From a virus, in IMG/VR virus record IMGVR_UViG_3300047321_000170, positions 18,937 through 82,936 of that record: 64,000 nt of DNA; one strand, 5' to 3'. Position 1 is the first letter of the stretch, and the number at the start of each line of letters is the position of its first letter. Below are positions 1,711 to 61,934 of the stretch, piece after piece. A program made the translations under genes and the position numbers. A model generated the notes under the pieces. The model ran no database searches, had not been told where the DNA came from, and saw nothing but the letters and a program-made list of their open reading frames with translations.

Positions 1711-1736
1711 GGCACTCACCACCACCACAGAGTGCC
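1711..1736 (+). promoter_or_regulatory. CCACCAC-loop leader hairpin upstream of endolysin
   Basis: GGCACTC-ACCACCACCACA-GAGTGCC, 4 nt before ATG 1741. Confidence 0.75.
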
Positions 1737-8898: not shown

Positions 8899-8918
8899 CG
8901 CCCGTCCACCACCGGGCG
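8899..8918 (+). promoter_or_regulatory. CCACCAC-loop leader hairpin
   Basis: CGCCCG-TCCACCAC-CGGGCG. Confidence 0.7.
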
Positions 8919-11583: not shown

Positions 11584-11787
11584 ATGGAGCAAACGATGAC
11601 ACCCACCACTGTCACCACGCCCACCCCGAAGCTGTACCGAATTCAAGCCGTCATGCAGCAGCTCAGCGTCTCGCGCGCGACCGTCTATCGTCTCGTGAAC
11701 AACGGCAAGCTGAAGCTGGTCAAGATCGGCGAACGCTCCAGCGGCATCACCGCGGAGAGCGTTGACGCTCTGGTAGCCGGCGCCTAA
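11584..11787 (+). CDS. xis: AlpA-family excisionase
   Basis: LYRIQAVMQQLSVSRATVYRLV HTH; near att site and integrase. Confidence 0.85.
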   Translation: MEQTMTPTTVTTPTPKLYRIQAVMQQLSVSRATVYRLVNNGKLKLVKIGERSSGITAESVDALVAGA

Positions 11788-12101
11788 CCGGACTCCTCTC
11801 TCGGGGGCAGTTTCTCCGCTGCCCCAAGCGGGGCCACTCTCTGTGGCCCCGATCCCAAGAATCCCCGCCTCGACATCTCCTGCATCATCAGCACACGCAG
11901 CTTTTCCAGTGCGACCAGCTGGCCACCCACGTCAACTTCCCAGCAACGCTGCACGACAACCCGATAGCTTTCGACCTCGTCGAACAGCTCGCGCATTCGC
12001 ACGACCTCCAGCACGAGCGCGCGGATCTCGTCTTGAGGGTACGTCCGATACAGGCGTCGCAAGTCCGTCATCGTCGGCGTTCCGAAATCTGGCAATCGCA
12101 T
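11784..12101 (-). CDS. LexA-regulated hypothetical protein
   Basis: 105-aa ORF with SD AAGGA; SOS box immediately upstream. Confidence 0.75.
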   Translation of the reverse strand: MRLPDFGTPTMTDLRRLYRTYPQDEIRALVLEVVRMRELFDEVESYRVVVQRCWEVDVGGQLVALEKLRVLMMQEMSRRGFLGSGPQRVAPLGAAEKLPPREESG

Positions 12102-12116
12102 GGCACTTCCTTAATA

Positions 12117-12132
12117 CTGTACGGATATACAG
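12117..12132. promoter_or_regulatory. LexA (SOS) box
   Basis: TA-CTGT-ACGGATAT-ACAG-TA. Confidence 0.85.
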
Positions 12133-12176
12133 TATCACGAACGCGCGCGGATGCCAGTACACTCGGGCGATTTTGC

Positions 12177-12480
12177 AGCTACCCACCCTTCTGCCCTACC
12201 ACCCCAAAAGTGGGTAGCTAGTCGGGTAGCTAGAGCCTAATTTTACTGGTCTGTTCACCGCAAACCCTTATGCAGCAAGGCTGCGAGAAATTCATGAAGA
12301 TTGCCACCTGCAATCTCCATTGATGTGTTTTAACGTACCGGAGTGTTTCAGGCAATCCCCGGAAAGCCCTGCCCAGCAAGGGTTCGTGTTCCGTAGTGTT
12401 TCATAATGTTTCGCGATACCACGCGAAATATGGGTAGCTAGGTGGGTAGCTAGAGCACGTATAATCGCGCCTAGCTACCC
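12177..12480. repeat. Integrase arm-type repeats of attP
   Basis: GGGTAGCTAG at 12212, 12224, 12432 and 12444; inverted at 12471 and partly at 12177. Confidence 0.8.
12294..12320. other. attP core
   Basis: ATGAAGATTG-CCACCTG-CAATCTCCAT: 9/10 inverted repeat around a 7-bp overlap, between the arm repeats. Confidence 0.75.
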
Positions 12481-12496
12481 ACCACAGAGACCTACG

Positions 12497-17925: not shown

Positions 17926-17949
17926 CAGGGCCGGTGGTGGACGGCCCTG
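17926..17949 (-). promoter_or_regulatory. CCACCAC-loop leader hairpin upstream of thyX
   Basis: Minus strand CAGGGCCG-TCCACCAC-CGGCCCTG. Confidence 0.75.
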
Positions 17950-27475: not shown

Positions 27476-27655
27476 TTACTCCTGCGCAGCTTTTTGCGCG
27501 CCGACCAGCGCGATGGCCAGGTTGGCGTGCTCCGGGTGTGCATTGAGCAGATCGTGGAGCTGGTTGGCGAGCCCCCACACCTTCGCCTTGACGATAGGTT
27601 CGAGCTTGCCTATCTCGTCCTCGACGAGCTTCAGTTGATGCTGAGCGATGTTCAT
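27476..27655 (-). CDS. Small hypothetical protein (59 aa, not in ORF track)
   Basis: MNIAQHQLKL..AQE*; leader carries both RNA-target motifs. Confidence 0.6.
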   Translation of the reverse strand: MNIAQHQLKLVEDEIGKLEPIVKAKVWGLANQLHDLLNAHPEHANLAIALVGAQKAAQE

Positions 27656-27680
27656 TGTTTTGATCCGTGGTGGTGGTGAT

Positions 27681-28457
27681 CTACAGCAGGAAATCCTTCA
27701 GAACTTCGTTGAGCACGCGGTCATTGCGCTCTCCGACTACCAGGTTCTTCAGGAGGTCTTCATGGGGCATCTCATAGAAGCCTGTGATCTCCCACATGGC
27801 CTTGAGGACTGCCTCGTTCTCTTTGACCCAAGTGAGAGGCTTCTTACCGAGATTGAAGGAGCCAGCTTCGCTGTCCCAGGACGGGACATAACCCTCGGTG
27901 AAGTATTGGAGCCAGCGCTCGCGGTCGCAGTGTTCCCACGCCTTCTCGCCGAATCCTGGGATGCCTGTGATCTTGTCCGACTTGTCGCCGACGAGCGTCT
28001 TCATGAGGCGCACTTCAGACCACGCGGTGTTGTCGTAGTGGATGTTGTCGCGACCCATGATGTGCGTGTGTACGCCATCACAGGACGCGAGAAAGTCGCC
28101 GTCTGTCGAGTGGATGTTGATGCGGTCTACGAGCGGCCGGTAATGCTTGGCCAGCTGCGTGATCACGTCATCTGCTTCCCAGCCAGCGATCTCCAGCGAC
28201 ATGCAGCGCGTAAAGCGCAGCACCTGCTTGAAGAGGTCCATCGTCTTGTAGAACACATCGGGTGGCGGCACTCGGCCTACCTTATAGCCAGGGTAAATCT
28301 TGCGACGGCGCTCTTTCGAGCCGTGGCCGTCCCAGACCCAGATGATTGTGTCGAACATGGGGAGCATGTTCATTTCATAGAGAACGTCACGGATCGTGCC
28401 GTTCGTCTCGAACTTGACGCGGAACTGGTTGTTCCCGTCGATCAGGTGAAGTGCCAT
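27681..28457 (-). CDS. 5'-3' exonuclease / flap endonuclease
   Basis: IDGNN, YK.GR, EADD, GDKSD.I.GI.GFGEK. Confidence 0.9.
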   Translation of the reverse strand: MALHLIDGNNQFRVKFETNGTIRDVLYEMNMLPMFDTIIWVWDGHGSKERRRKIYPGYKVGRVPPPDVFYKTMDLFKQVLRFTRCMSLEIAGWEADDVITQLAKHYRPLVDRINIHSTDGDFLASCDGVHTHIMGRDNIHYDNTAWSEVRLMKTLVGDKSDKITGIPGFGEKAWEHCDRERWLQYFTEGYVPSWDSEAGSFNLGKKPLTWVKENEAVLKAMWEITGFYEMPHEDLLKNLVVGERNDRVLNEVLKDFLL

Positions 28458-33284: not shown

Positions 33285-33356
33285 GTTTCGATCCAGTAGA
33301 TGAAAGTTATTACAGTAGGACGCTCGGTGGTGGACGTGCGTCTTACCGTATGCTGT

Positions 33357-35128: not shown

Positions 35129-35223
35129 AGGCCACCTTTGCGGGGCGCAGAAGAAAGGGGTTTCATGTTGACTCCATTGTCAGAATGCTCAAGCGCGGTG
35201 GTGGTCGCGCATCCTACAGATAC

Positions 35224-36027: not shown

Positions 36028-36249
36028 TTGGTTACAAATCCTTTATAGGTCGTCGATATTACCTTACTAGGTCGCTCTGTGGTGGAAGATTTGACCTTTC
36101 TTTTTGTGCTTAAGACATCCTCTCACACGTTGACCGCCTGCTCAGGATATGTCTTGCGTGAAGGCGTATAACCGCCGACCCGTCTGTACGCTGCACGGCG
36201 TACATCGAAGGTTCGAATTGTAAGATGAAACCTTCAATCTTGGGGCTGC

Positions 36250-37782: not shown

Positions 37783-37931
37783 GATGTGGTGGTGATGTTA
37801 GGTACAGACGGGCAGACAGAGCGCGGGGCCAGCCGCTTCTCTGTGAGCTATGGAATTGGGGGCTGCGGGTATGAAAACAGCGCGCCTCAGCGCGCTGTTC
37901 TTGCTGCTATTCGGTGCTGCGATTCTCCGGC

Positions 37932-38150
37932 TTACAGGTTTGTAGCCATCGAGTTGTGCAACGTTTCGCGCTCGTCTGCGGCGACTTGCGTGCTGAGGCG
38001 GGTCTTGCGGTTCTTCAGGCCCGCGACCTTTGCAGCCCAGTGCTCTTGAGCGGCTTGCGCTTCGAGCAGTTCGAGTTCGCACTCGCGCAGTTGGTGCTTC
38101 GCTTCCGCTTTCGGGTTTTTGAAATTAAACAGGCTGGCCAGATAACGCAT
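37932..38150 (-). CDS. Hypothetical coiled-coil protein
   Basis: ORF with SD. Confidence 0.65.
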   Translation of the reverse strand: MRYLASLFNFKNPKAEAKHQLRECELELLEAQAAQEHWAAKVAGLKNRKTRLSTQVAADERETLHNSMATNL

Positions 38151-38181
38151 GATTGATCCTTCAATGTGGTGGTGGTGGTGA

Positions 38182-40726: not shown

Positions 40727-40777
40727 GATTACTCTGTGGTGGTGAGTGAGTGATGATGGAATGTTCAAAGTTAACAT

Positions 40778-46740: not shown

Positions 46741-46755
46741 GTGCAGTGACTGCAC
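46741..46755. promoter_or_regulatory. Palindrome, family B
   Basis: GTGCAG-TGA-CTGCAC. Confidence 0.55.
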
Positions 46756-48269: not shown

Positions 48270-48473
48270 CTACGAGCTACGACGAACGACTATCTTGTCG
48301 TCGAACTTGTCGTGGGTGATCAGGGTTTCGCGCACGTATTGAGCCGTGCAGTTGCGGTTGTAATAGACGGTGTCAATCTTCTCGACACCAAGAAACACAT
48401 CCCAGCCGATATGTGCAGTGGCTGCACTTACCTGCTGGCCTCGAACCAGTGAAAGCGATTTGCGAAGCATCAT
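48270..48473 (-). CDS. Hypothetical protein
   Basis: IDTVYY..YVR.TL..HD motif. Confidence 0.6.
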   Translation of the reverse strand: MMLRKSLSLVRGQQVSAATAHIGWDVFLGVEKIDTVYYNRNCTAQYVRETLITHDKFDDKIVVRRSS

Positions 48474-49251: not shown

Positions 49252-49265
49252 GTGCAGTGCTGCAC
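49252..49265. promoter_or_regulatory. Palindrome, family B
   Basis: GTGCAG-TG-CTGCAC. Confidence 0.55.
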
Positions 49266-49432: not shown

Positions 49433-49831
49433 TCATGCTGCGATCTCCTGCGTCAACGCGTGGTGATACACGTCATGCAGGTAGGTCTTGATGTCGTTGC
49501 GGTTGCGGCCCGTGATCTTGATGACCGCGCCCCATTCGAGCGATGGCGTGACGATGACTTTGTGCTCGGTCCAGCCGTCATACATCCCCACGTCATTCAT
49601 GTGGTGGAAGTCGGCTTGAAAGACCAGCTTGTTGGATTTGCACTCGTGCGCCAGCAGCTTTGTGCCTGCGTCGATACCAGAGCCGCTAGGCAGCGGCTTG
49701 AGCATGGCGTCGAGGCGTTCTTCGTGCATGTCGATGCACGAACGCTGCGAGTCGTTAGCTGAAGGGGATTTACAACGCTCGATGGTGGCGAGCTGACGAG
49801 CAATCGCCTGATAAAGCGGTTGAGGTTTCAT
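49433..49831 (-). CDS. Hypothetical protein
   Basis: LPSGSGID.G..FHHMN..G.YDGWTEH..TG.N motif. Confidence 0.75.
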   Translation of the reverse strand: MKPQPLYQAIARQLATIERCKSPSANDSQRSCIDMHEERLDAMLKPLPSGSGIDAGTKLLAHECKSNKLVFQADFHHMNDVGMYDGWTEHKVIVTPSLEWGAVIKITGRNRNDIKTYLHDVYHHALTQEIAA

Positions 49832-49961
49832 TGCATGTTTCCGTGGTGGTGGAAGTTTTGATCCTCCAGGAGCCTCTTGGCGGGGCTCCCGGCACTGCGG
49901 GTGCTACCTTGGTACTACTGACGGCCGGCCAGGGCCACCAACGGGCTGTATTCCAGCCCAA

Positions 49962-50438: not shown

Positions 50439-50449
50439 TTGTGGTGGTG

Positions 50450-51023
50450 AACTATCAGATAGTTGTGATGATTTCGCTCGCGGGCCAGCGCGGGGCTCAA
50501 AAACGGTGCAGGAATAGACTTTCCAAATCCTTTTTCTATAGTTAAATAAAACTATCTGATAGTTGGAGTCCTCACTCGTGGATCGATTTTTAAAGTCTAT
50601 TCAACCAACCTCTTCTCTTCTTGAATGGGGAATTGGAAGGAAGAAAAAGAAGAGAATAGGAAAAGCTAAGTGCTTGAAACGCAAAGCCAAAAGCTCCACA
50701 AACCACAACTATCTGATAGTTTGCGTTCGGCGCTCGATCCTACCCGTGGTCGGACTGGCCGCTCCGATTGGTATGCAAGTGGGCTCTCTGTGGAAGCGAT
50801 CTGTAATGTGGAGTTATCCACAGCTTTGAGGCCGGCCGGTTACGCCTTGGACCTTTTGCCCACTGGTGGAACAACGCTACCCCTCCACCGCCCATCCCGC
50901 ATTGCGCACATCACTAGCCGCTCAACTATCTGATAGTGCAGTTCTGCACCTTGACATTTGCCAAGGAGCCGTATTCCGCAACACTAACTATCCGATAGTT
51001 GCGCCCACAACTATCTGATAATT
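50450..51023. repeat. Cluster of six family-A palindromes in a largely non-coding, partly AT-rich region
   Basis: AACTATC(A/T/C)GATAGTT-type copies at 50450, 50550, 50707, 50924, 50986 and 51009. Confidence 0.8.
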
Positions 51024-52420: not shown

Positions 52421-52479
52421 AAAGTGCAGTTCTGCACTTTTCTTTTTCCCCTTGCTAAAAGTGCAGACGCTGCACTTTT
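52421..52479. promoter_or_regulatory. Two extended family-B palindromes
   Basis: AAAGTGCAGTTCTGCACTTT and AAAAGTGCAGACGCTGCACTTTT. Confidence 0.7.
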
Positions 52480-52509: not shown

Positions 52510-52531
52510 GGGCGTGGTGGTGGACACGCCC
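52510..52531 (-). promoter_or_regulatory. CCACCAC-loop hairpin near the 5' end of the early leftward transcript
   Basis: Minus strand GGGCGTG-TCCACCAC-CACGCCC. Confidence 0.7.
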
Positions 52532-52697: not shown

Positions 52698-53261
52698 ATG
52701 TCCCAAGATAAATTCACCCGAGACCAATTCACCGTCGAGCTTGCGAGAGAGTGGTTTGCCTACGATGCTGAAGCCGGCGTAGTAATCAGGATCAAGAATC
52801 CTAAGAAGGGTCCGCAGACGGCCGGCACGCGAGCCGGAGCGCCTCATAAAGCGAGTGGCATGCGCCAGGTCATCTTTCGTGGCGTGAGCGTCTATGAGCA
52901 GCAGCTCGTCTGGGCGCTATGCAAGGGAGCGTGGCCGACATCCAAGCTCAGGTTCAAAGACGGCGACCCTCTCAACTGTCGAATTGAGAACTTGTGTGGG
53001 GCAACGAATACAGCAGATGATTACAAGGCGTTACAGTCCAAGACTGTCAGGGAATCCTTACCCCTCTCTGGCGTAATTCCTACCTCAAGTGGGAAGTTCA
53101 AGGCTCAAATTTTCCGAGAGCGGATGATCTATCTAGGCACGTTCGATACTCCTGAGAGTGCAAGTGCGGCATACCTGACAGCCAAGTCAGTCCTTCATGA
53201 TCCGCTTAATAGAGGGAAATCGACAGTTGAGCTACTTGAGGGACTACCAAAACTGGGTTAA
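52698..53261 (+). CDS. HNH-AP2 protein with degenerate HNH active site
   Basis: G.WP..(LRF)KDGD.LNCRIENL; AP2-like GV..GKFKAQI..YLGTFDT.E.AS.AY. Confidence 0.8.
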   Translation: MSQDKFTRDQFTVELAREWFAYDAEAGVVIRIKNPKKGPQTAGTRAGAPHKASGMRQVIFRGVSVYEQQLVWALCKGAWPTSKLRFKDGDPLNCRIENLCGATNTADDYKALQSKTVRESLPLSGVIPTSSGKFKAQIFRERMIYLGTFDTPESASAAYLTAKSVLHDPLNRGKSTVELLEGLPKLG

Positions 53262-53318
53262 GGAAACCTTAAAGCCAAGTTTTGAGAGGTTGACTTTAGA
53301 GTTTGGTAGCTCCAACCC

Positions 53319-53347
53319 TTGCAAACGCACCTCAAGATGTTTATAGT
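53319..53347 (+). promoter_or_regulatory. sigma70 promoter for predicted sRNA
   Basis: TTGCAA-N17-TATAGT. Confidence 0.75.
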
Positions 53348-53351
53348 TCCG

Positions 53352-53520
53352 TCTCAAGTGCTGCGTGATCTGTGGTGGTGAGCGCAGCAGCAGAGATGTC
53401 ATGTCTCTGTCACGACTGAGGGGTGGCCAGCTCCAAAGTCAACCGTCCTAGACGGTAGTTTTGATCCATTGTAGAAGCTCAAAAGCCCCACCGACTAGCT
53501 ATCGGCGGGGCTTTTCCTTT
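53352..53520 (+). ncRNA. Predicted structured antisense sRNA with GUGGUGGUG loop
   Basis: Promoter and terminator with no convincing ORF between them; hairpins at 53360-53388, 53391-53409 and 53442-53456; complementary to repeated leader motifs. Confidence 0.7.
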
Positions 53521-53522
53521 TT
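53481..53522 (+). terminator. Intrinsic terminator (possibly bidirectional)
   Basis: AAAAGCCCCACCGA-CTAGCTA-TCGGCGGGGCTTTT followed by CCTTTTT. Confidence 0.85.
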
Positions 53523-53550
53523 CAGCCTGAGAATCTAGGGCTGAACTCCA

Positions 53551-53578
53551 AGACTACTGTGTTTACATACAGCGTCAA
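53551..53578 (-). promoter_or_regulatory. Leftward sigma70 promoter with LexA box as spacer
   Basis: Minus strand TTGACG-CTGTATGTAAACACAG-TAGTCT. Confidence 0.75.
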
Positions 53579-53609
53579 TACTTGTACTCCTTGTTGAACA
53601 CCTGCAGGT

Positions 53610-56129
53610 CTAGGCGGTGACGGGCTGCTCTCCAGAATGGTCCTTCGTCGTACTCGACGTACTCCCCGCTCCCACAAGTGTGAGGTTCTTGTACTCGACA
53701 GACTGGCCTCCCATCGGGGTTTGCTCGATCGTAAGTTTGAATCCGAACTCGGTAGCCAATTCCCTCATCTTTGCTCTGAACTGAGTCGATCCAACAGGCC
53801 GCGCAGATCCCGGCCCGACGCAGAAGGACCAATATGCCTGATAGAGCTTCGTTTCCGGTACGGATGTGGGGGTCGAAGTCTTCGACCCAGCGGACTCCTC
53901 TTGTTGGAGAGCGAGAATCCGCACTTTCCCGCTCTCCATGAGAAAAAAACGTACGCTGTTGTTCAGGTTCGCTACTTCACGCATGATCTGGGAGTGCGAA
54001 GTCGGGATCGTGAACTCGTTCGTGAGCTTCAGTCGTGACATCGCCTGCACTGCCCACGCAACGATGGCCTCACGCTCTTCAACCACGATGGCATCACCGA
54101 GATCCAGCCGACGCTCCGACGCTTTCACCGGACGGTTAAATTGGAGTACGAGCCATCTCCGATTGAACCCTTCCGATGTATCTTCCGTGCGCGGGTAGTG
54201 ATTCGACGCAAACCAATGCGTACAGATAGGGTTGAACCGGAAAATTTGCCCGCCCTTCATCTGTCCGGACATCTCAGCGCCGTCGATGATGTCCTTGAAC
54301 TTCTGGCCATCGACAGTCTTCTTCTCGCTCAGCTCACCAGCCACGTTGATGATCTTTTCGAACATTTGCGTCGGCAAAAACTTGTCGCTCCACTCGTTAG
54401 GAGGCACCGCGGAACGAGCTGTGTCTGGCACAAGCGCCTGTGCGATCTTCAACAGCTGTGATTTCCCTGACTTCGGAGCGCCTTGCAGCAAAATCGCACG
54501 TTGATAACGCGGTCCAAGACCGAAAAGCGTAACTGCCAAGGCTTCTTGGAGAGCCTGAATCTTGGCCTCGCAATCCTCGTCTTCACCCCAACTCTTCCTC
54601 AGAAAATCGAAAAACATCGTCGAATGACCAGCCGCTTCCGGCAAATAGCGGAACGGAAGCGTGTACGTCATGCCGTAACCCTGGTCATGCGGCAGCAATT
54701 TGAGGTCTTCCGTGAGAAAACCGTTCGCGAAGTTGACGCCCTTAACATCAATCGACTTAATTCCCTGTGTCATGAGCATTTTCATGACTTGAGAGACGCC
54801 GCGAATGTCGTTGAACTTCTTGCAGGCCGCGAGATGCCCATAATCAGAGCTGATCCGGGACATGATGTATTGGTCGTCCACCTTCTCCCAATGTGAACCG
54901 GCCCATTTCCACACGAACCCATTATGAGCGCGCACGGCATACAGCTGCTCCAGGTCTTTAATCACCGCGCGAGCGATCTCAGACTGGTCCTGGCCTTTGA
55001 TCTCGCCCATGCGCAGCTCTTTGATACGCGCTTTTAGGCTGGAAACACGAATTCCCATGCCAGCAGTCTGCGCGATGAACTCAAGCAGCCGGTCCTCTTC
55101 CAGCTTATTCAAAGTCGATGTGGTCGCAACCTTTTGCAACGCCTTGTCGACCGATGTTGCTCGACCCGGTGACTCCTTCGGATAGCGCTCAAACTCGTCA
55201 ATCAGGAACTGTTTCAAGTCCTCGAACGACCACTCCTCCTGCTCCTTCGTGATCTCAAGCCCCCACGACTCCTTCTCGGCGTCCGTCATGCCCTCGTCCC
55301 AGCCGGTCGGCAGCACCTTCTGCTTCTCGAACACGTCTCGCTGGAGGAACTTCAGCATGTTGCGGATGTGCTTATCCACATCGATAGGGTCGCCCGCGAC
55401 GTTCTCCACGAAGTCAGCTGCGTACGCCTGAAGCATGCCGATGGCTTCCTTCAATGTGCGATCGCCGCGGATCACCGCGTAAGCGAACAGTCCTGCGCGC
55501 TCAGTCAGGCTCGTGTCGCGCGAGCCCGCCGAAGCATAGTCCACCACGCGCGTCCAACCAGAGTGCGACAGCTCGACGCCGGCCTCGGTGAGCGCGGCGC
55601 GCAGCAGAACCTCGATGTTCTCGTCGAGCGGCTGGAGATTCTTGTGAACGTCAACCAGGTCGCAGTTAGCCTGGTACGGCAGCTGCGTGTCCGGATGGAT
55701 CGACGGCGGCAGCACCGACTGCGTGCGAGCCGACAGCATTTCGCAGATCGTCTGCCCGCTGGTGTTCTTGATCCGGAAGGTCTTCAGGCCCGAGTAGCGA
55801 TACGCGAGCATGACGCCCTTCTTGCCGATGCGGCGCCAAGGAGAAACCGGCAACAGCTGCTCGATCACGTTCATCAACCGCACGTCTTCCGTGTCGATGT
55901 CCATCATCACGATGCCCGACTGCGGGCCGAGCACGATGCCGATGTTCGAGTCGCGGCACTGCTCAATCCAGCTGGCCTGTTGCTCAGGCTCGACCGGATG
56001 ATCGAAGTAACGCGACCAGTCGTTCGGGATAGGCTTCTTTTCGCGCGGGTACAGCGGAATCACTGGCAGGCCGGCCGCGTAGTAGCGCGGCGCGGTCTCA
56101 GCGAAGATGGGGAGGCGTTCGATCTTCAT
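53610..56129 (-). CDS. Bifunctional primase-polymerase / D5-like SF3 helicase
   Basis: PVIPL..KKP, NIGI, DID, PPSIHP; GAPKSGKS Walker A, ASN, RRW. Confidence 0.9.
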   Translation of the reverse strand: MKIERLPIFAETAPRYYAAGLPVIPLYPREKKPIPNDWSRYFDHPVEPEQQASWIEQCRDSNIGIVLGPQSGIVMMDIDTEDVRLMNVIEQLLPVSPWRRIGKKGVMLAYRYSGLKTFRIKNTSGQTICEMLSARTQSVLPPSIHPDTQLPYQANCDLVDVHKNLQPLDENIEVLLRAALTEAGVELSHSGWTRVVDYASAGSRDTSLTERAGLFAYAVIRGDRTLKEAIGMLQAYAADFVENVAGDPIDVDKHIRNMLKFLQRDVFEKQKVLPTGWDEGMTDAEKESWGLEITKEQEEWSFEDLKQFLIDEFERYPKESPGRATSVDKALQKVATTSTLNKLEEDRLLEFIAQTAGMGIRVSSLKARIKELRMGEIKGQDQSEIARAVIKDLEQLYAVRAHNGFVWKWAGSHWEKVDDQYIMSRISSDYGHLAACKKFNDIRGVSQVMKMLMTQGIKSIDVKGVNFANGFLTEDLKLLPHDQGYGMTYTLPFRYLPEAAGHSTMFFDFLRKSWGEDEDCEAKIQALQEALAVTLFGLGPRYQRAILLQGAPKSGKSQLLKIAQALVPDTARSAVPPNEWSDKFLPTQMFEKIINVAGELSEKKTVDGQKFKDIIDGAEMSGQMKGGQIFRFNPICTHWFASNHYPRTEDTSEGFNRRWLVLQFNRPVKASERRLDLGDAIVVEEREAIVAWAVQAMSRLKLTNEFTIPTSHSQIMREVANLNNSVRFFLMESGKVRILALQQEESAGSKTSTPTSVPETKLYQAYWSFCVGPGSARPVGSTQFRAKMRELATEFGFKLTIEQTPMGGQSVEYKNLTLVGAGSTSSTTKDHSGEQPVTA

Positions 56130-56683
56130 ACGGTCTCTTCTGTGGTGGGGTCAGTCGCGCCATCGTCAGCTGCTGCTGAACGGGCCAGGACGCTCCTGAG
56201 TCGATCCATAACGTCCGTACGCTGGTCAGGCGACAGGACTTCTTCCATGATCGTGAGCACGGTGTCCTGGAAGTCTTTGATCTGCTTGACTCCCAGCGCG
56301 CGCTCGCGAGCATTCACAAGACGTTCGAGCAAACTGGTCGCGGTGCGGAAATAGGCCATCCGCTCCGTTTGATCCGACTGCCCGATGGTCTTGCCGTAGG
56401 CTTTCAGCTCCGTGAAGACTGAGTGCAAGTCTCCAGCGAGCGTGCTGTCAATTTCATCCTCCGATACGGGGGCTGAGACAGGCGGTTTCTCGGTTGACTC
56501 TTCTTTTTCCTCCCTTGATCCGTTGCCGAACGCGATAGCACGGTCAATGATGTTCTTGAACTGTGCGTCATAGGGACAATCAGGACTACGGAGGTACAGG
56601 ACATCCTCACTGGCCAGAGTGAGAATCGTCTTGACAGCCCACGTAGCGTGGTCCGTCAGATCGGGATAGTGGTAGTCGCTCAT
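56126..56683 (-). CDS. Hypothetical protein, possible terminase small subunit
   Basis: Helical 185-aa protein adjacent but divergent to terminase large subunit. Confidence 0.5.
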   Translation of the reverse strand: MSDYHYPDLTDHATWAVKTILTLASEDVLYLRSPDCPYDAQFKNIIDRAIAFGNGSREEKEESTEKPPVSAPVSEDEIDSTLAGDLHSVFTELKAYGKTIGQSDQTERMAYFRTATSLLERLVNARERALGVKQIKDFQDTVLTIMEEVLSPDQRTDVMDRLRSVLARSAAADDGATDPTTEETV

Positions 56684-61833: not shown

Positions 61834-61934
61834 GCCCACCACCGGGCCGCAGGAACTGGCTGAAGTACCCCGCGCGCGACACCGTCCACCACCGGCCGCG
61901 CGCGGCAGACGAACAAAACTCTTTGGATCAAAAC
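61834..61934 (+). promoter_or_regulatory. Capsid leader with two CCACCAC hairpins and TGGATCAAAAC
   Basis: GCCC-ACCACC-GGGC; CCG-TCCACCAC-CGG within CCGCGCGCG/CGCGCGCGG; TGGATCAAAAC at 61924-61934. Confidence 0.7.

Follow-up and report, generated by a model that had tools for sequence, protein, structure and literature searches.

A candidate phage-encoded small RNA complementary to a start-codon motif of its own genome

Introduction

Can a single RNA encoded by a phage address genes in every module of that phage's own genome? The question is raised by a 348-nt gap between two protein genes in the virus record IMGVR_UViG_3300047321_000170 of IMG/VR, of which bases 18937–82936 were analysed (64,000 nt; hereafter the window, to which coordinates refer unless a record is named). 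A non-coding RNA gene occupies this gap at 53319–53522 on the plus strand, with a transcript of ~165 nt (53354–53522), and an initial annotation made from the DNA letters had proposed that its loop is antisense to a motif in about 25 phage messenger RNA (mRNA) leaders. The known phage antisense RNAs C4, CI, OOP and sar are each devoted to one operon, and to our knowledge the known multi-target small RNAs (sRNAs) belong to the host.

The virus record (82,936 bp) is bounded by direct terminal repeats, its primase DNA is ~71% identical to the primase of Achromobacter phage JWF, and close relatives are proviruses, including one in Burkholderia paludis MSh1. Because it carries a tyrosine integrase gene, the phage is classed as temperate; it is a siphovirus with a host of Burkholderia type. 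The sample of origin looks to be a rhizosphere metagenome, and a look for RNA-seq runs containing this phage found none.

Results

A structured RNA gene conserved at one locus

Homologues of the RNA from 11 IMG/VR contigs and the B. paludis prophage were brought into a 12-sequence alignment, all of them from an equivalent position downstream of the primase gene. The promoter that had been claimed, TTGCAA-N17-TATAGT, was found by the promoter scan (Table 1), and a −35 (TTGnnn/TTTACC), a 17-nt spacer and a −10 (TAnAnT) stand at the same place in 12/12 homologues despite differing spacers, with the conserved promoter ending ~7 nt ahead of the predicted RNA 5′ end. Four helices were assessed across the alignment, with 93.5% of cells paired and both-side changes in 17 of the 31 pairs; none of 500 shuffles matched the RNA on any of five measures, and pairing fell to 34–52% in slid-partner controls. 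Helix P1 is paired in 100% of cells with compensatory changes in 3/8 pairs (stem variants CTGCG/CGCAG, CTTCA/TGAAG, CTTGA/TCAAG and CTTCG/CGAAG), and while the stem covaries its loop, GATCTGTGGTGGTGAG, is invariant in 12/12 homologues. The stretch GUUUUGAUC is likewise invariant and unpaired, and a U-G pair in helix P3 is retained in 12/12 homologues. Helix P2 was left out of the consensus structure because the alignment there is poor.

The plus strand is the folding strand, since the ~13% of paired cells that are G-U would be A-C mismatches on the opposite strand. The terminator T-run is also on the plus strand in 12/12 homologues, and the A-run required for minus-strand use is absent in one clade. 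The fold is more stable than that of shuffled sequences (z-score, −3.96), with the exposed loop and the further hairpins that had been described, and the strong terminator placed at 53481–53522, which is GC-rich, was recovered as a stem followed by a T-run. The sole plus-strand open reading frame (ORF) in the RNA gene, of 28 amino acids, is interrupted by stop codons in homologues, in keeping with the earlier reading of ~165 nt without a convincing ORF. Overall, 53319–53522 is almost certainly a real RNA gene. Two of its conserved loops, GGCCA and UAGCUA (53496–53501), are self-complementary, such that the RNA could dimerise or bind a protein; no complementarity of these loops to start regions was found.

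A covariance model of these 12 sequences detects a single RNA copy per genome (122–190 bits), the homologue in B. paludis MSh1 scoring 187 bits. Weak matches of the model to two relatives (G001 and G008), which had the appearance of a second RNA copy, are to the antisense of the capsid leader and were rejected as copies, and two of the three matches in a scan of the genome collection (L032, L034) were chance matches. A search of the whole window against Rfam gave no match at the gathering threshold, and at E up to 10 (53250–53620) there were nine sub-threshold hits, C4 not among them; the best of these, the sodF sRNA (26 bits, minus strand), spans only the terminator and was set aside. The RNA has no sequence or structure match to the GcvB Rfam family.

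A motif that follows start codons

The heptamer CCACCAC occurs in 61 copies in the whole genome compared to ~7 for composition-matched heptamers, and 19 composition-matched permutations have 1–12 copies each (the overlapping register CACCACC excepted). There are 32 copies in the intergenic 12% of the genome, 23 in sense orientation inside genes and six in antisense. A position ≤40 nt upstream of a candidate start was found for 37 copies, which make up ~25–30 distinct leaders, so that the earlier figure of about 25 stands. The density of the motif in start regions (−40 to +20) is 15–31 times that of gene interiors in five complete genomes of the clade (JWF, 4 times), with a similar pattern in G001–G004. 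At orthologous leaders the motif is retained while the flanks diverge, for example in the primase leader, where it is kept in 13/14 RNA-carrying relatives (the L010 copy is degenerate), and in several orthologues it falls just downstream of the ATG, as ACC-ACC-AC. Such freedom of position about the start codon accords better with a blocked ribosome footprint than with the fixed spacing of a Shine-Dalgarno (SD) sequence. An SD tetramer is present in 20% of motif-bearing leaders compared to 44% of the others (odds ratio, 0.32; P = 1e-4), indicating that the motif often stands in place of the SD. In one relative (G002:C1:69464–69511), the leader orthologous to that of the gene starting at 38150 holds ~16 CAC repeats, the motif having expanded to a microsatellite.

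A subset of copies is displayed in hairpins: 14/61 copies have NCCACCAC in an 8-nt loop closed by a stem of ≥4 bp, against a null rate of 7.6%. The display stems differ between genomes yet pair (GGGCCG/CGGCCC and GGGGCG/CGUCCC; CCCG/CGGG and CCCUG/CAGGG).

An asymmetric motif that is co-oriented with transcription, genome-wide and mostly intergenic could also be a double-stranded DNA site of a phage repressor, similar to the stoperators of cluster A mycobacteriophages, in which case the copy in the RNA gene would be just another site. L5-type stoperators also contain GGTGG. Opposed to this explanation, which we consider very improbable, the motif tracks start codons even within upstream coding sequence and after the ATG, it comes with RNA-type hairpin loops, covarying stems and G-U pairs, no fixed promoter-like element accompanies it, and the likely operators are other palindromes (GTGCAG-N3-CTGCAC, below). 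A role as promoter element was rejected as well, as no conserved element was seen at a fixed upstream distance.

Complementarity of the RNA to start regions

The complement of the loop 17-mer has five matches at ≤3 mismatches compared to 0.14 expected, and the 11-mer core of the loop has 13 compared to 0.96 expected; the minus strand, which bears most of the genes, holds 11 of these 13. The flanks of the motif agree with the loop beyond the CCACCAC core (A at −1, C at −2, G at +8), and position +7 is a purine in 35/49 sites, A and G both pairing with the loop U. Each of the complementary sites listed by the initial annotation was recovered, namely the 14/14 match at 40733–40746, the 15-nt match with one G-U at 27661–27675, and the 10–12-nt complements at the endolysin, integrase and primase genes and at 36076. 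As had also been noted, one intergenic copy of CCACCAC in the window (53372, in the RNA gene) is opposed to the local gene orientation, and it is the only one.

Using each position of each genome's own RNA, it was possible to scan for Watson-Crick complementarity of ≥8 nt to start regions, with internal coding windows as the control. These contiguous-complementarity profiles replaced a test by duplex energy, in which the loop did not separate start regions from internal windows, because long interior loops inflate the GC-rich background. Two peaks only occur along the RNA, and helix P3 is not enriched. The seed 1 peak (RNA positions 22–31, in the loop) covers 16.5% of start regions in this genome compared to 0.6–1.3% of internal windows, and is similar in G001, G003 and G004 and lower in G002 (~8%). 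The seed 2 peak, UUUUGAUCC, covers 4–10% of start regions compared to 0.1–0.9% of internal windows in 4/5 genomes. Seed 2 pairs with GGAUCAAAAC, of which there are three copies outside the RNA gene (27657, 49855 and 61925), all of them at a ribosome site and beside a copy of CCACCAC. The clearest case is the leader of the major capsid gene, with (U)GGAUCAAAAC at the start codon and a CCACCAC in a hairpin loop ~30 nt upstream. Seed 2 forms 11, 13, 15 and 12 contiguous bp with the cognate capsid start region in four genomes and is without such a match in G002.

At the level of sequence, complementarity at the two independent seeds is non-random, and the predictions that follow from one RNA addressing genes of all modules held. 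Three properties of trans-acting base-pairing sRNAs that can be read from sequence are present: an independent transcription unit, a conserved unpaired seed and seed complementarity enriched at start regions.

The loop might instead act on the host, with the phage leaders as decoys, given that GGUGGUGA resembles an SD and could pair with the 16S anti-SD or with host mRNAs. A fixed host target would also explain the invariance of the loop, and the phage leaders AUCACCACC resemble the 16S 3′ end AUCACCUCC, though as a resemblance only. The loop would form 7/8 pairs with the anti-SD; the one U-U mismatch weakens this pairing, and the position of the motif at phage start codons is left unexplained. 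This reading strikes us as extremely improbable.

Co-occurrence, and pairing weighed against a cis signal

The RNA and the motif enrichment occur together in seven complete genomes (this one, G001–G004, G007 and G008), and there was neither an RNA-model match nor motif enrichment in six relatives (JWF, 2-1, Lumi, Seuss, G005 and G006); the motif copies of JWF are mostly antisense to genes. Retention of the motif without the RNA, which the initial annotation had named as pointing to a protein-binding site, was not seen in any of the relatives examined. Loop variants were sought and none found among the 12 homologues, with a metagenome scan returning two fragments without the region and a profile scan of viral contigs adding one distant phage, which is without the RNA.

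Several observations count against base pairing with the leaders. All carriers belong to one clade, making the co-occurrence a single gain, and the loop is identical in all 12 homologues, so that there are no loop changes to compare with the leader motif. Variants of the motif that differ at one position are not biased towards wobble-compatible changes, and the pattern in JWF is the same. For seed 2, which is U-rich with an added UCC and would match A-rich, GGA-containing ribosome sites partly through composition, cognate pairs with the capsid leader are not always better than non-cognate ones, leaving the covariation between seed 2 and capsid leader suggestive only, and targets were not found in G002. 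Among the cluster K mycobacteriophages (below), Keshu retains 17 start-associated sequences without an antisense loop. Finally, depletion of the SD in motif-bearing leaders would mean that the motif has a cis role of its own, without an RNA partner.

The last of these points leads to an explanation that we regard as rather unlikely, in which CCACCAC is chiefly a cis signal (an SD-independent initiation or standby element) or the site of an RNA-binding protein of host or phage, similar to the action of CsrA on GGA motifs or of T4 RegA on start regions, and the RNA loop has another or a marginal job. A motif that may abut or follow the ATG would suit it, as would the CsrA-like combination of hairpin-loop and linear display, the outcome of the wobble test and the case of Keshu. 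On the other side, chance is unlikely to have given an invariant 15-nt loop the precise complement of the heptamer most enriched in start regions, flanks included (rough odds, 10 positions × 4^-7), the peaks of complementarity are confined to the two single-stranded segments that are conserved, and no candidate protein was identified.

Features of the locus and of its predicted targets

Table 1. Positions in the window of the RNA gene and its parts, of predicted target sites, and of neighbouring or possibly regulatory features
Feature	Position	Strand	Evidence or remarks
Sigma-70-type promoter, TTGCAA (53319–53324) N17 TATAGT (53342–53347)	53319–53347	+	Promoter scan; predicted start near 53354
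Helix P1, 53359–53366/53382–53389 (8 bp), with 15-nt apical loop 53367–53381 GAUCUGUGGUGGUGA (seed 1)	53359–53389	+	Fold, alignment
Helix P2, sequence-variable hairpin	53390–53410	+	Single-sequence fold; hairpin here in each homologue
Helix P3 with conserved GGUGGCCAGC, loop GGCCA 53425–53429	53414–53440	+	95% paired; double changes in 3/5 pairs
Helix P4 (ACCGUC/GACGGU)	53442–53456	+	Compensatory changes in 4/5 pairs
Single-stranded GUUUUGAUCC (candidate seed 2)	53458–53467	+	Invariant GUUU(U/C)GAUC; unpaired in consensus structure
Intrinsic terminator, stem 53485–53494/53502–53511, conserved loop UAGCUA, then T-run to 53522	53485–53522	+	Double changes in 7/13 pairs
Predicted target: 14-nt perfect complement to seed 1, 9 nt ahead of ATG	40733–40746	-	Predicted duplex energy −31.6 kcal/mol
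Predicted target: tandem site for both seeds, AUCACCACCACCACGGAUCAAAACA-AUG	27657–27676	-	Duplex energies −28.9 (seed 1) and −15.1 (seed 2) kcal/mol
Predicted target: both seeds, GGAUCAAAAC then CCACCACCACGG, ahead of ATG at 49831	49843–49864	-	Complementarity
Predicted target: major capsid gene leader, CCACCAC in hairpin loop 61886–61892 and UGGAUCAAAAC at ribosome site 61924–61934	61886–61934	+	Complementarity
Predicted target: primase leader CCACCACAGA, 12 nt ahead of ATG, within end of upstream gene	56142–56151	-	Complementarity
Predicted target: integrase leader CCACCACAGA	12479–12488	+	Complementarity
Predicted target: endolysin (GH19) leader CUCACCACCACCACAGA	1715–1731	+	Kept in G001, G003 and G004
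Predicted target: leader AUCACCACCACAUC-AUG without SD	37786–37795	-	Complementarity
Predicted target: leader UUCACCACCACAA-AUG without SD	50441–50451	-	Complementarity
Predicted target: leader with (CAC)n run, ATG at 38150	38166–38181	-	Complementarity
Hairpin-displayed copy cagggccg-UCCACCAC-cggcccug, 16 nt ahead of ATG	17934–17940	-	Stem varies but pairs in G003 (caggggcg/cgucccug) and G001
Hairpin-displayed copy cgcccg-UCCACCAC-cgggcg	8906–8912	+	Stem scan
Hairpin-displayed copy upstream of 33284	33327–33333	-	Stems differ in G003 and G001
Hairpin-displayed copy gcgcg-ACCACCAC-cgcgc	35198–35204	-	Stem scan
Hairpin-displayed copy gggcgug-UCCACCAC-cacgccc	52514–52523	-	Stem scan
LexA-type box TACTGT-N8-ACAG, TACTGTGTTTACATACAG	53555–53572		33 nt past RNA terminator
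Second LexA-type box, perfect palindrome TACTGTACGGATATACAGTA	12115–12134		Before minus-strand 105-aa ORF (11784–12101) beside integrase
HNH endonuclease gene	52698–53261	+	Pfam HNH_3; upstream of RNA gene
Primase gene	53610–56129	-	Gene end faces RNA gene gap

Beside the tandem site, at 27578–27681, a short ORF runs from an ATG at 27646 directly after the double target, in a frame other than that of the DNA polymerase ORF, for which GTG 27578 was taken as the start; the polymerase may in fact begin elsewhere, or there may be a small upstream gene or a frameshift.

The HNH endonuclease gene has atypical codon use and a low GC content (52%), and in every homologue it stands ahead of the RNA gene. 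The RNA promoter of one clade falls within the 3′ end of the endonuclease gene, such that the RNA might also arise as a product of a 3′ untranslated region. A search for tRNA and tmRNA genes found none in the window.

LexA-type boxes and candidate operators

Two LexA-type boxes occur in the window compared to 0.03 expected. The box that adjoins the RNA gene, from which a possible tie of the RNA to lysogeny derives, lies inside a minus-strand promoter-like sequence (TTGACG-N16-TAGTCT) pointing back into the RNA gene. This site is weak and was not called by the promoter scan, and of the relatives only the two closest, L016 and L017, retain the box. The ORF behind the second box could be an SOS-controlled gene of antirepressor type; searches of Pfam and PHROGs gave no function for it or for the neighbouring early genes.

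Palindromes of the form GTGCAG-N3-CTGCAC were observed at 46741–46755, 48413–48427 and 52461–52475, with similar sequences near 49255, 51460 and 52400. They adjoin early-gene leaders, often beside CCACCAC, and are likely operators of a phage repressor.

Discussion

Comparison with known systems

The mode of action proposed for the phage RNA is most like that of GcvB, in which a G/U-rich seed silences C/A-rich ACA elements near ribosome sites, these elements being translation enhancers with loose positional requirements (PMC3879156). Both RNAs have their own promoter and intrinsic terminator, a conserved single-stranded seed and a regulon set by a shared short motif. GcvB is Hfq-dependent and enterobacterial, whereas the phage RNA is without sequence or Rfam relation to it and aimed at the phage's own genes, with a seed in a hairpin loop and a target that is a fixed heptamer, often replacing the SD and sometimes itself in a hairpin loop. 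The sX13 sRNA of Xanthomonas uses repeated C-rich loop motifs to recognise a short complementary, G-rich motif close to ribosome sites in numerous mRNAs; encoded by the host, it has the opposite base composition and is unrelated in sequence to the phage RNA.

In its biological role, the phage RNA likely resembles the immunity RNAs of P1, P7 and P4, by analogy. P1/P7 C4 and P4 CI are structured phage RNAs of 70–170 nt with exposed loops that pair with repeats in phage transcripts and keep lytic functions off in the lysogen. They are excised from the transcript under their control and have two target sites within a single operon, whereas the RNA described here is a stand-alone gene with ~25–30 start regions in all modules and both genome arms, and has no Rfam C4 match even at E = 10.

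Among motifs, the closest likeness considered is to the start-associated sequences (SAS) of cluster K mycobacteriophages, an asymmetric short motif found in one phage group, in one orientation and a few nt from 13–19 start codons, the function of which is still unexplained (PMC3203893, PMC11373665); a single reverse-oriented copy is not at a gene start (PMC3203893). CCACCAC is similarly asymmetric, in one orientation and a few nt from many start codons. However, the SAS holds the SD core AGGAG and is limited to non-structural genes, while CCACCAC is without an SD core and occurs in every module, and no separate RNA gene has been defined in cluster K.

In Mycobacterium phage Adephagia (JF704105, 58,683–58,694; L075:33683–33695), the only reverse SAS was observed in the apical loop, GGCCUCCUAUCCCC, of a hairpin of ~19 bp. 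Genes 92 and 93 are separated here by a non-coding gap of 432 nt, which contains the hairpin and in which late transcription reportedly begins. The hairpin is conserved in 137 cluster K records, with pairing kept in diverged members. Covariation of loop and target was not found in cluster K, where Ekdilam has a degenerate loop but canonical SAS. With Ekdilam and Keshu as exceptions, the cluster K parallel is a lead and not support.

The cluster A stoperators, bound by L5 gp71, are many asymmetric repressor sites, co-oriented with transcription and spread across the genome. They are DNA sites without a tie to start codons and without RNA structure, whereas CCACCAC follows start codons and RNA hairpin loops. 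Stoperators have also been contrasted with the SAS (PMC3203893).

A proposed mechanism

The reading that we prefer, and hold to be reasonably probable, is that of a GcvB-like multi-target base-pairing RNA, probably repressing translation and possibly linked to lysogeny. Host RNA polymerase would transcribe the RNA from its own sigma-70-type promoter as far as the intrinsic terminator, and two invariant single-stranded segments would be exposed, the P1 loop holding GUGGUGGUG and the segment GUUUUGAUCC just before the terminator. Over 8–14 bp the loop would pair with a C/A-rich mRNA-strand element, (C)ACCACCAC(R)(G), placed between about −40 and +15 relative to the start codons of ~25–30 phage genes; these come from every class, with early genes and those for primase, integrase, endolysin, tail, portal and capsid among them. 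Copies of the element would be met both linear and in hairpin loops, the latter permitting loop-loop (kissing) contact. Ribosome sites of the GGAUCAAAAC type would pair with the second segment, the clearest case being the major capsid gene; GUUUUGAUCC may be this second seed, or a U-rich Hfq-type module beside the terminator, or both. The C/A-rich element is probably an unstructured element for SD-independent initiation or enhancement, and when the RNA masks it the 30S subunit would be kept from binding, the effect that GcvB has at C/A-rich (ACA) enhancers.

Given pairing, repression is somewhat favoured over activation, because many linear sites end 0–3 nt from the ATG or lie in codons 2–5, where a 10–14 bp duplex should exclude the 30S subunit, and because GcvB offers a direct precedent. 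An RNA that pairs with the leaders and activates them, by opening the motif hairpins or recruiting the ribosome to SD-less leaders, seems quite improbable, even though such leaders need some aid, pairing would remodel the hairpins that hold a subset of the motifs, and helix 3 contains purine-rich GAGG/GGUGG stretches. The same placement of linear sites at and behind the ATG speaks against it, the SD-like stretch of helix 3 is not conserved (GUGGCCAGC alone is), and the motif-loop hairpins leave the start codon unsequestered.

With a promoter of host type, synthesis of the RNA is expected in the lysogen and, on infection, from the first minutes onwards, and with ~30 target sites the lytic burst of transcription would titrate it, giving a threshold. 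The most likely role of a repressing RNA would then be that of a threshold filter, holding leaky lytic messages untranslated in the lysogen or in early infection. In the nearest relatives, SOS induction may relieve this filter through a LexA-controlled promoter antisense to the RNA gene, the transcript of which could remove the RNA. Pairing in vivo, the direction of its effect, its timing and the link to SOS are points that we infer from the sequences compared here.

A more far-reaching version, which we hold to be improbable, is that CCACCAC would be a true SD substitute set by the phage RNA, a private translation layer that times every gene class, with the same logic perhaps at work in unrelated temperate phages, where a motif at start codons would be matched by one antisense copy in the hairpin loop of a non-coding transcript, as the cluster K mycobacteriophages may exemplify. 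If true, one RNA would switch a whole class of SD-less messages on or off.

Significance

Multi-target base pairing by sRNAs is a known mode of regulation; what would be new is a phage RNA acting in this mode on a start-codon motif of its own genome. The regulon of the candidate RNA would take in roughly one quarter to one third of the genes of the phage by means of a dedicated motif, and the presence of that motif in the place of the SD raises the question of how such messages are translated in a host that normally uses the SD. The system is compact, consisting of one 165-nt RNA and one heptamer, and a close relative exists as a cultured lysogen, Burkholderia paludis MSh1. It may also suggest an answer for the cluster K SAS, unexplained since 2011.

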